From the sequence record OR846282.1: DNA of 1,152 nt, one strand, 5' to 3'. The translations under genes were made by a program, and so were the position numbers. Below the pieces are notes generated by a model. That model did not search any database. It worked only from the letters and a program-made list of their open reading frames with translations, and was not told the DNA's origin. Below are positions 1 to 1,152 of this stretch, in pieces. Positions within the stretch are counted from its first letter, which is position 1. Every line of letters begins with the position of its first letter. Source of the DNA: a phage.

Positions 1-63
1 CTATTACATAATACTCATTACCGTGTCCCTTAAACTTAATTACTCTGAAGTCTGTAGCTTTCT

Positions 64-258
64 TTACCATAAGCCCTGCTCCTCACCTTCGTTCAGATAG
101 TACTGCTCTGCAATTAAGTCTTCTACCTGCTGGCGAGCACGCTTCGCCGTCTCTGGGGCGTGCTCTGCCAGCTCAAGTAACTTCGCCTCCATACCTGCGA
201 AGTCTTCTTGGAAGTACATTTCAATTACTTCTTCTACTGCTGCGTTGAAAGTTGCCAT
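64..258 (-). CDS. small, strongly acidic hypothetical protein (64 aa), function unknown
   Basis: ATG at 258..256 preceded on the minus strand by GAGGA (268..272) with a 9-nt spacer; TAA stop at 64..66. Same strand as the exonuclease and overlaps its 3' end by 25 nt (234..258). Composition counted from the translation: 15 Asp/Glu versus 4 Lys/Arg, no Cys. No recognisable catalytic motif. Confidence 0.55.
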   Translation of the reverse strand: MATFNAAVEEVIEMYFQEDFAGMEAKLLELAEHAPETAKRARQQVEDLIAEQYYLNEGEEQGLW

Positions 259-1152
259 GCTTTGTATTCCTCATTGTAAGCATGGAGGGACTCGCACCAT
301 TTCTGGAGGTCGCCCTCCAGTAGGGAGTGTATGTATTTGAAAGCTGAGTCGTCGGGGCTGCGTCTAAGAAAGAGGCATTCCATCTCAGCTAGGAAATTCT
401 GGTTAATCTCTGCATAGGCAGCAACTACTTTATTAGCTGCTTCCTTCTCGTTAGTGCAATCCTTGAGGAACTCATAAGCCCCAGCAGGACCAATGTTCTT
501 CCCCCTGTACTTGGTAAGGCCAGCGACGTTATCCGCACCGTCACCCATCAGGCACTGCGCATAGAAGAACGCTAGGCCGTGGCCCACTATCTTACCTCTG
601 GACTTATCGTAATCAATCCAGCCGTAAGCATCGTCTATAGTATCAACCGTGCCTAGCTCAGGGTTCCACTTAGGACCTCGGCACAGGTTCATATCCTTGT
701 CGAAGCTGCTTACTAAGCCACGTTCTCCAAAGACTCTACTGTCAGCAATAATAAGGTCGTCAGCTTCCTGCTGATAGTCGAATACAATCTCTATACCTTG
801 AGCAGAGTATTCATGAGGATTGGCTATGAGATGCGCTTTGAGAGGCGCTTTGAGTGGTATCTCCGTCCGCGTAGCCCGCTGACCTTGGTAGGGCTTAACG
901 GACGGCAGTAGGAAGCGCCCACACTTGAAGTTATCAGATGGAGGACTATAAGCCCGTACAGTCTTAGAGTTAACATAGAACTTATCCTCGAGGACTAATT
1001 GATAGAAGCGCCGGATAGCTGTATCCAAGCGCTTCACTGTACTGGCTGCCTTGTAGACATGCTGGTCACTATCTAGTAGCAGTACAGTATCTGAGGGAGC
1101 AGGTGGCGCTAACTGAGCGCCAAGCTCGTTTAGGTTAATGCCACCAACGTTC
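234..1152 (-). CDS. 5'-3' exonuclease / flap endonuclease (FEN / Pol I 5'-exo family, phage type); 5'-partial, N-terminus runs off the window
   Basis: ORF-track 267-aa product (234..1037) carries the acidic active-site motifs of FEN-type nucleases: EADD at 756..767 (cf. E. coli Pol I 5'-exo EADDVIGTLA), DKD at 693..701 (cf. GDKDMAQL) and GDGADNVAGL with GDGADN at 528..545 (cf. GDSSDNIPGV), plus a YQGQR element resembling YKxxR. My hand translation of the same frame upstream of 1037 has no stop to the window edge (…NVGGITLNELGAQLAPPAPSDTVLLLDSDQHVYKAAST-VKRLD…) and contains LLLDSD at 1065..1082, matching the N-terminal LILVDGSS-type motif. No ATG/GTG/TTG lies in that frame between 1038 and 1151, and the GTG at 1037 has no convincing Shine-Dalgarno. 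Stop codon TAG at 234..236. Confidence 0.85.
   Translation of the reverse strand, partial: NVGGINLNELGAQLAPPAPSDTVLLLDSDQHVYKAASTVKRLDTAIRRFYQLVLEDKFYVNSKTVRAYSPPSDNFKCGRFLLPSVKPYQGQRATRTEIPLKAPLKAHLIANPHEYSAQGIEIVFDYQQEADDLIIADSRVFGERGLVSSFDKDMNLCRGPKWNPELGTVDTIDDAYGWIDYDKSRGKIVGHGLAFFYAQCLMGDGADNVAGLTKYRGKNIGPAGAYEFLKDCTNEKEAANKVVAAYAEINQNFLAEMECLFLRRSPDDSAFKYIHSLLEGDLQKWCESLHAYNEEYKAWQLSTQQ
268..272 (-). promoter_or_regulatory. putative Shine-Dalgarno (GAGGA) for the 64-aa ORF, embedded in the 3' end of the exonuclease gene
   Basis: Minus-strand sequence reads TGAGGAATACAAAGCATG; the purine-rich GAGGA sits 9 nt upstream of the ATG at 258..256. Confidence 0.4.

Follow-up and report, generated by a model that had tools for sequence, protein, structure and literature searches.

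What is the role of a very small and strongly acidic protein that a phage encodes directly behind its exonuclease gene? The question is raised by a stretch of phage DNA of 1,152 nucleotides (nt) from sequence record OR846282.1 (hereafter the window), in which every gene on the list of open reading frames (ORFs) lies on the minus strand and in which positions 64-258 encode a protein of 64 amino acids (aa), here called X. On the grounds of its acidity and location, the original prediction took X for a candidate anti-host protein of the DNA-mimic type. As it stands, X is a well-defined, uncharacterised hypothetical protein, and the DNA-mimic, anti-host reading is neither supported nor refuted by the results presented below. 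The two principal features of the window are the following (dN/dS, ratio of non-synonymous to synonymous divergence).

64..258, minus strand: X, acidic 64-aa ORF and phrog_6923 member (ORF translation, PHROG match, homologues, dN/dS, AlphaFold2)
234..1152, minus strand: T7-gp6-type 5'-3' exonuclease (phrog_107, E 1.2e-56)

The sequence of X, MATFNAAVEEVIEMYFQEDFAGMEAKLLELAEHAPETAKRARQQVEDLIAEQYYLNEGEEQGLW, is the translation of 64..258 on the minus strand and contains 13 Glu and 2 Asp against 2 Lys and 2 Arg (plus one His), that is, 15 acidic and 4 basic residues. The computed values (isoelectric point (pI) of 4.12, charge of -11.4 at pH 7, 7.4 kDa) confirm the net charge of about -11 given in the original prediction. 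Its placement of X immediately downstream of an exonuclease is equally borne out: the upstream ORF belongs to phrog_107, and its last 8 codons and stop share 25 nt with the first 8 codons of X, which is read in the -1 frame relative to the exonuclease. A GAGGAA Shine-Dalgarno sequence is located 8 nt 5' of the X ATG, and the sequence upstream of X that carries it is kept in all loci of the clade found in E. coli phages. At the other end, the TGG of Trp64 and the TAA stop overlap the ATG of the next gene (ATGGTAA), and a 7-nt overlap of the same type is present in Escherichia phage P64441, phage PAS7, Klebsiella phage NTUH-K2044-K1-1 and loci L011-L015 (loci of related phages are numbered where needed; L001 is P64441, L018 is PAS7 and L019 is phiKpS2). 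The Shine-Dalgarno sequence of the downstream gene, GGTGAGGAG, sits in the X codons Gly58-Glu59-Glu60, and the TTATGG that encodes Leu-Trp holds the downstream ATG. X is translationally coupled both to the exonuclease upstream and to the next gene downstream, overlapping ends of this kind being the usual coupling arrangement in autographivirus operons. The signals and overlaps are located as follows.

267..272, minus strand: Shine-Dalgarno sequence GAGGAA of X, within the exonuclease coding sequence (upstream sequence AATGAGGAATACAAAGC, then ATG)
234..258, minus strand: 25-nt dual-coding overlap of the exonuclease and X (coordinates; pS, defined below, of 0.12 against about 0.76 in the centre of X)
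79..87, minus strand: Shine-Dalgarno sequence of the downstream gene, GGTGAGGAG (tail alignment of 13 loci)
64..70, minus strand: ATGGTAA junction of the end of X and the ATG of the next gene (same 7-nt overlap in relatives)
1..70, minus strand: first 23 codons of a 61-aa ORF (MVKKATDFRVIKFKGHGNEYYVI...; full ORF at L002 7083..7268)

The proportions of synonymous (pS) and non-synonymous (pN) differences were obtained from a codon-level comparison of nine loci. In the non-overlapping centre of X pS is saturated (0.76) and pN is 0.28, and in codons 46-57 pN is as low as 0.08 with pS again saturated; because pN is low relative to a saturated pS, selection is acting on the protein. Within the 25-nt overlap with the exonuclease pS drops to 0.12, as dual coding is expected to lower synonymous divergence, and in the last eight codons it is reduced to 0.55. 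Given the Shine-Dalgarno sequence, the coupled layout, the phage homologues with strict synteny and the codon-level selection, X is a genuine gene under protein-level purifying selection. It is accordingly most improbable that the ORF is without function as a protein and merely spaces the exonuclease from the next gene for translational coupling. Such a spacer would account for both ends overlapping the neighbours and carrying their signals, and the ORF is indeed left unannotated in some records, including that of NTUH-K2044-K1-1, but outside the overlaps purifying selection is strong (pN 0.08-0.30 against saturated pS), and clades of about 30% identity still agree in length, helix pattern and hydrophobic core. 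Moreover, X possesses a Shine-Dalgarno sequence of its own and persists in L009 and L010, where the downstream overlap is missing. An exonuclease-X fusion produced by -1 frameshifting was considered and rejected: a TGA interrupts the X frame five codons ahead of its ATG, and the 25-nt overlap, read by eye, contains no X XXY YYZ slippery site. Positions 64-258 gave no Rfam match to an RNA element at E <= 1, and no promoter or terminator consensus sites were found in them.

To which family does the protein belong? The original prediction did not recognise one. This stands insofar as no characterised family was matched (Pfam and NCBIfam yielded nothing above noise), but X is nevertheless catalogued, in an entry without an assigned function: residues 11-55 match positions 12-56/64 of the profile phrog_6923 ('unknown function') in PHROGs v4 with E 1.4e-7. 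The same profile scores the NTUH-K2044-K1-1 orthologue with 2.6e-38 and P0027 with 4e-5, and a profile of the window clade aligns to the former orthologue with an hhalign probability of 94%. Judged by these profile comparisons, X is a new clade member of phrog_6923. By position it corresponds to gene 33 of phage KP34, between the exonuclease KP34p32 and the endonuclease VII KP34p34; no published characterisation of phrog_6923 or of the KP34-like counterpart was found in the literature searched.

Homologues of X in the protein database number 77, all of them on contigs of <= 45.5 kb. By tblastn, 257 phage records carry the Klebsiella type of X and phages of Pantoea, Erwinia and Cronobacter the Limelight type, and altogether phrog_6923 members occur in at least 260 records of phiKMV-type podophages (Slopekvirinae, Limelightvirus). 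An exhaustive hidden Markov model search of 1.84 billion cluster representatives matched only 4 clusters; the family is accordingly narrow and restricted to phages, with no distant cellular relatives. Scans of IMG/VR and of the JGI metagenomes added just 2 further X loci, and X was absent from 5,426 E. coli genomes and from the plasmids searched. Family members are 63-67 aa long and share a three-helix pattern that is common to the E. coli and Klebsiella clades, albeit identity between the E. coli-phage clade and the Klebsiella members is only about 30% and the former ends in a clade-specific tail, EGEE(Q/L)xLW. Among 35 aligned members, positions 11, 12, 14-16, 23, 27, 30, 45, 48, 49 and 55 are hydrophobic in at least 90%, and Glu24 is present in 100%.

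Several relatives of X carry a name that implies an enzyme. In phiKpS2 (NC_047857, L019 1525-1701) a 58-aa family member is labelled 'beta-galactosidase', and the same label is found on X relatives in the records of VLC4, KP1-1, PWKp7, VAC25 and KpIITR008. The name is evidently spurious and has been propagated between records.

What, then, does the genomic context say about the partners of X? The window is 99.6-99.7% identical to four unannotated phage assemblies from wastewater and 80% identical to Escherichia phage vB_EcoP_P64441 (Autoscriptoviridae, Slopekvirinae). In the near-identical phage L002 the gene order is phosphoesterase, 261-aa protein, 128-aa acidic protein, exonuclease, X and the 61-aa ORF, followed by endonuclease VII, a DUF3310 protein, small ORFs and the phage RNA polymerase (RNAP). 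X is a product of the middle operon, that of DNA metabolism, in a Slopekvirinae-type (phiKMV/KP34-like) coliphage; in the PAS7 record, as deposited, its gene lies ~15 kb from the start, after those for helicase, polymerase and exonuclease. X directly follows the exonuclease in P64441, PAS7, NTUH-K2044-K1-1, phiKpS2, Pantoea phage LIMElight and seven metagenomic contigs; this placement is kept among E. coli, Klebsiella, Pantoea, Erwinia and metagenomic relatives, and with one exception the start of X shares 8-41 nt with the 3' end of the exonuclease. Endonuclease VII is usually found downstream, and the genomes are of the phiKMV type and roughly 43-kb in size.

Such constancy is what one would expect if X were an accessory or regulatory subunit of the DNA processing of the phage itself, binding the exonuclease, endonuclease VII or the replisome, for instance by tempering a basic nuclease or by bridging proteins, with no host protein involved. 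We regard this as a real possibility, though a rather unlikely one. X invariably adjoins and couples to the exonuclease, the ancestral arrangement also couples it to endonuclease VII, and a partner of phage origin would agree with X being near-core in phages whose hosts belong to different genera. The sequence type of X likewise tracks phage lineage and not host, the E. coli phages AV102 and PSK2 carrying the Klebsiella type. The attraction of endonuclease VII as a partner lies in its strong basicity (net charge of +11 to +13, of which the C-terminal tail has +7). However, phiKMV, in which endonuclease VII comes directly after the exonuclease, lacks X although its exonuclease is the same and the tail of its endonuclease VII is similarly basic, and in other phages repeated gene insertions separate X from endonuclease VII. 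Nor does the variable region of X (described below) co-vary with the two allele types of endonuclease VII: relative to the window phage, L013 is 95% identical in endonuclease VII and 67% in X, and L015 60% and 73%, respectively. Furthermore, X diverges much faster than the exonuclease (67% versus 88-92% identity), and the exonuclease is itself acidic, with a net charge of -11.

The structure of X was predicted in two AlphaFold2 runs, both of which place three helices at about residues 4/6-16, 20-33 and 35-60. The mean predicted local distance difference test score (pLDDT) was 76.3 with an alignment of 24 sequences, and a more diverse alignment of 35 sequences brought no improvement (74.8). The monomer models contain no beta-strand. 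Positions 13, 24, 46, 51 and 56, the ones most widely acidic in the family, do not share one face of a helix. At about twice the length of helices 1 and 2, helix 3 would extend beyond the bundle with its C-terminal half. This half, together with an acidic tail that ends in Leu-Trp, makes up residues 46-64, the segment of X that is most conserved within the E. coli-phage clade; it includes a conserved hydrophobic and aromatic cluster (Y53, Y54, L55, L63 and W64) set in the acidic segment. Residues 51-64 are also the part of the model with the lowest confidence (pLDDT 45-60). On the basis of the models, residues 46-64 are a candidate surface for partner binding or dimerisation. Directly before them, where helix 2 ends and helix 3 begins, residues 31-45 are hypervariable between near-invariant flanks and fall into three or four discrete types (AEHAPETAKRARQQV, YKQDPALYKQAQVQL, YKVNRSLYKQVQVQL and ADLGYPELAAKARAEI).

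67..123, minus strand: most conserved segment of X, residues 46-64, EDLIAEQYYLNEGEEQGLW (invariant columns, pN, pLDDT)
121-168, minus strand: hypervariable stretch, X residues 31-45 (alignment of relatives)

Comparison with known structures returned nothing beyond the family. A profile search of all PDB sequences with X gave coiled-coil noise only (E >= 0.18), and fold searches with the model matched no solved structure and no DNA-mimic fold, be it gp5.9, Ocr or Gam. The matches in BFVD were to family members (LIMElight, KMI6 and phiKDA1), apart from weak, provisional ones to other phages, several of them other phiKMV-type podophages. Of what the original prediction proposed to look for by structure prediction, the helical character is thus seen throughout the model, but the fold does not match those of solved DNA mimics. 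Among the findings that would speak against it, it had also named confident homology to a characterised, non-inhibitory protein, structural or other; Pfam, NCBIfam, PDB and fold searches produced no confident match to a characterised protein of any kind, and in this respect the hypothesis survives.

A small, fast-evolving protein with an exposed hydrophobic and aromatic cluster within an acidic segment and with a hypervariable stretch in three to four allelic types could also inhibit or redirect a different host factor, by ordinary protein-protein binding and not by DNA mimicry; a nucleoid protein, MukBEF, a protease, a component of a defence system or a factor associated with RNAP are examples. 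There is a precedent in T7 gp5.9, which has MukBEF as a second target (PMC7617805). We nonetheless consider a role of this kind unlikely, as no specific target is pointed to, the X gene is situated outside the early host-takeover region, and the host RNAP inhibitor of phiKMV-type phages is a separate gene, Gp25.1, directly upstream of the phage RNAP gene (PMC7552054). Because of that location, a function for X as a Gp2-like inhibitor of host RNAP was rejected as unlikely.

The tail of X invites a comparison of another kind. The single-stranded DNA-binding protein (SSB) of E. coli has an acidic C-terminal tail that terminates in an aromatic residue, and X (...NEGEEQGLW) shares this feature with T7 gp2.5 (...EADEDGDF) and gp4 (...SNDTDF), as read from the T7 genome. 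X might accordingly be a decoy that imitates SSB-type tails and thereby engages the pockets of polymerases or repair enzymes in which such tails normally dock. In the E. coli-phage clade L63 is invariant, even though any codon ending in A or G would keep the overlapping start codon, and in the distant P0027 the terminus ...DDAADWEF is encoded clear of the next gene; selection on the protein has therefore probably contributed to keeping the tail acidic and aromatic-terminated. That X acts as such a decoy is, on the other hand, very unlikely. The motif is not family-wide (LIMElight ends in ...DDIMSIQP, P0026/P0075 in ...NAETD and some Klebsiella members in ...GEIEL), its Glu codons coincide with the downstream Shine-Dalgarno sequence and its Trp with the downstream ATG, and the resemblance is short and of low complexity. 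X also differs from the proteins it is compared with here in lacking an OB fold or helicase domain, the prediction being all-helical and no SSB match being obtained in Pfam or PDB.

The reading that we put forward, tentatively and as one that may well prove wrong, is that X is a stoichiometric inhibitor of a host DNA-end enzyme, in the first place RecBCD. X would act as a binding protein in stoichiometric amounts, without catalytic activity, and its acidic helical surface together with the conserved C-terminal helix and tail (EDLIAEQYYLNEGEEQGLW) would occupy the basic DNA-binding surface of a host enzyme. The target would be an enzyme that processes DNA ends, RecBCD being the most plausible. 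With RecBCD blocked, the linear phage genome and the intermediates of replication and recombination would be protected while the phage exonuclease and endonuclease VII act. Three successive steps are inferred here: binding of X to a partner, a host enzyme as that partner and, finally, RecBCD as that enzyme.

This proposal is consistent with X being small and all-helical, having a pI of about 4.1 and adjoining a phage nuclease gene. Its most conserved segment is also the least confidently folded (residues 51-64), which fits in that a surface ordered only upon binding or oligomerisation would be expected to appear so. No homologue of Ocr or gp5.9 was detected or is annotated in the complete genome of PAS7, and the anti-RecBCD role is therefore not visibly filled there. 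In T7, the small non-essential class II proteins of known function (gp1.2, gp2, gp4.5, gp5.5, gp5.7 and gp5.9) are mostly inhibitors of host proteins.

Several observations weigh against inhibition of RecBCD by DNA mimicry, beginning with the above-mentioned lack of any homology or fold match of X to gp5.9, Ocr or another solved mimic. The charge is not a family trait: a net charge of -9 to -13 is confined to the E. coli-phage clade and P0027, whereas the Klebsiella and Limelight clades have just -4 to -8 and contain a KTHRR basic patch. Set against the Klebsiella members by themselves (-4 to -7), the E. coli-phage clade is about twice as negative. Only about 5-8 acidic positions are conserved family-wide, and just five (13, 24, 46, 51 and 56) carry an acidic residue in 85% or more of the members. 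The acidic tail is in part a nucleic-acid signal, serving as Shine-Dalgarno sequence and ATG of the downstream gene. X is moreover a syntenic near-core gene of a DNA-metabolism operon and not a variable early gene. Finally, 6 of the 39 early and middle proteins of PAS7 have a pI of <= 4.4, so that acidity alone does not single X out, and the other small acidic ORFs of that phage are equally valid anti-host candidates.

These ORFs of PAS7 are found at 10590-10778, 14082-14465, 16406-16576, 2781-2948 and 1621-1749. They lie in the early and middle region, have net charges of -7 to -12 and pI values of 4.1-4.4, and are without a Pfam assignment where tested. In P64441 (L001, PQ847473) the same operon includes, 5' of the exonuclease, a gene at 2531-3112 that is annotated as a pentapeptide-repeat protein. 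Qnr and MfpA are pentapeptide-repeat DNA mimics, and this gene is for that reason a further candidate for a DNA mimic.

How closely does X resemble the inhibitors on which the proposal is modelled? The nearest parallel is T7 gp5.9, a DNA mimic that inhibits RecBCD and, like Gam, is small, acidic and helical (PMC9836394). Both gp5.9 and X are very small (52 and 64 aa), helical and non-catalytic (the last conjectural in the case of X), with a pI of about 4, and the genes of both lie among the DNA-metabolism (class II) genes of an autographivirus, where they adjoin and overlap a gene 6-type exonuclease. Yet there is no detectable homology between them (hhalign probability of 1.4%; no gp5.9 PDB chain at E <= 10), and gp5.9 dimerises as a parallel coiled coil that carries an N-terminal strand (PMC9836394), in contrast to the three-helix unit predicted for X. 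Gene 5.9 also directly precedes the exonuclease gene 6, whereas X follows the exonuclease. Gam of lambda and Abc2 and Arf of P22 are likewise small proteins that are encoded beside the exonuclease or recombinase of their own phage and act on RecBCD; Gam is acidic, helical and dimeric, and Arf is small, acidic and a suggested DNA mimic (PMC9836394). PDB profile and fold searches reveal no similarity of X to any of the three, Gam is longer (98-138 aa) and of a different fold, and the phage studied here is a lytic podovirus in which no Red- or Erf-type recombinase was identified. T7 Ocr (gp0.3), an inhibitor of type I restriction and BREX, resembles X in being highly acidic and helical with an acidic C-terminal tail, but it is not homologous (best BLASTP E 1.4), no Ocr-like fold was recovered, and Ocr has 117 aa and is the product of the first early gene, not of a middle operon.

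A bolder form of the proposal would make X the founder of a new and structurally unrelated family of inhibitors directed against RecBCD or another host DNA-end enzyme, in which a three-helix acidic body carries an acidic, Trp-terminated tail that plugs a DNA- or SSB-tail pocket, and which is distributed over the Slopekvirinae/KP34-like and some phiKMV-type lineages. We think it improbable that this holds in full. If true, it would supply widely used therapeutic podophages of Klebsiella and E. coli with their missing counterpart of gp5.9 or Gam. KP34-like and Slopekvirinae podophages are among the therapeutic phages most often isolated for these hosts, and a counterpart of gp5.9, Gam or Ocr has so far not been identified in them; X, near-core and made alongside the phage exonuclease, is a sensible first candidate for such an inhibitor. 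A block of RecBCD or of another DNA-end enzyme by X would represent a new fold among phage inhibitors, and from it one could predict the abortive-infection sensors, RecBCD-guarding retrons for example, that these phages set off. If X instead partners a phage nuclease, it would show how phiKMV-type phages control their exonuclease and endonuclease VII.

As regards the neighbouring genes, the exonuclease is annotated as such in P64441 and PAS7 and has 306 aa in the near-identical phage (L002 5999..6919), the window missing only the first 2 nt of its ATG. It gave no Pfam-A match at E <= 1 and no PDB sequence match at E <= 0.01, and in view of its strong match to phrog_107 it is therefore a divergent branch of the gp6/FEN-like exonucleases. 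The 61-aa ORF that lies between X and endonuclease VII in the window phage is the same gene in L013 and P64441 and has no Pfam, NCBIfam or PHROG assignment.

The slot directly 3' of X is a hot spot of insertion (window phage, L011-L015, L019 and relatives). Endonuclease VII follows X directly in PAS7, L012, L015, NTUH-K2044-K1-1 and LIMElight, and elsewhere the slot is taken by an HNH_3 endonuclease (L014), a 328-aa HNH_3-Endonuclease_7 fusion (L011) or a 76-aa ORF (phiKpS2). The window phage, L011, L013 and L014 have all retained the ATGGT(A/G)A junction, and the gene inserted there starts Met-Val; P64441 has a GTG start at the equivalent junction.

In the group of assemblies near-identical to the window (OR848265, OR846985, OR850875 and OR844702), the records that bear the names 'Listeria phage LM 4-14-1', 'Listeria phage LM 4-11-1' and 'Salmonella phage S.Kent 1-2-1' are 99.6-99.7% identical both to the window and to 'Escherichia phage ECO104 4-5-2'. 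OR844702 gives wastewater as its source and carries an UNVERIFIED_ORG flag. The host labels of these records are doubtful, above all that of the Gram-positive Listeria.

Further upstream in the operon, two genes 5' of the exonuclease, the conserved 261-aa protein (phrog_862; L002 4788-5573) ends in a long, low-complexity tail rich in Pro and Ala (...PAPAAPQAPAAPAAPVAPPVAPVPPVMPAAPAI) and has no relative in Pfam or PDB. PDB sequence searches with this protein, with the 128-aa protein (phrog_6607) and with the exonuclease were uninformative. In both PAS7 (7368-9729) and P64441 (1-1982) the DNA polymerase is annotated as two coding sequences that overlap by 8 nt, which suggests a split or frameshifted gene.

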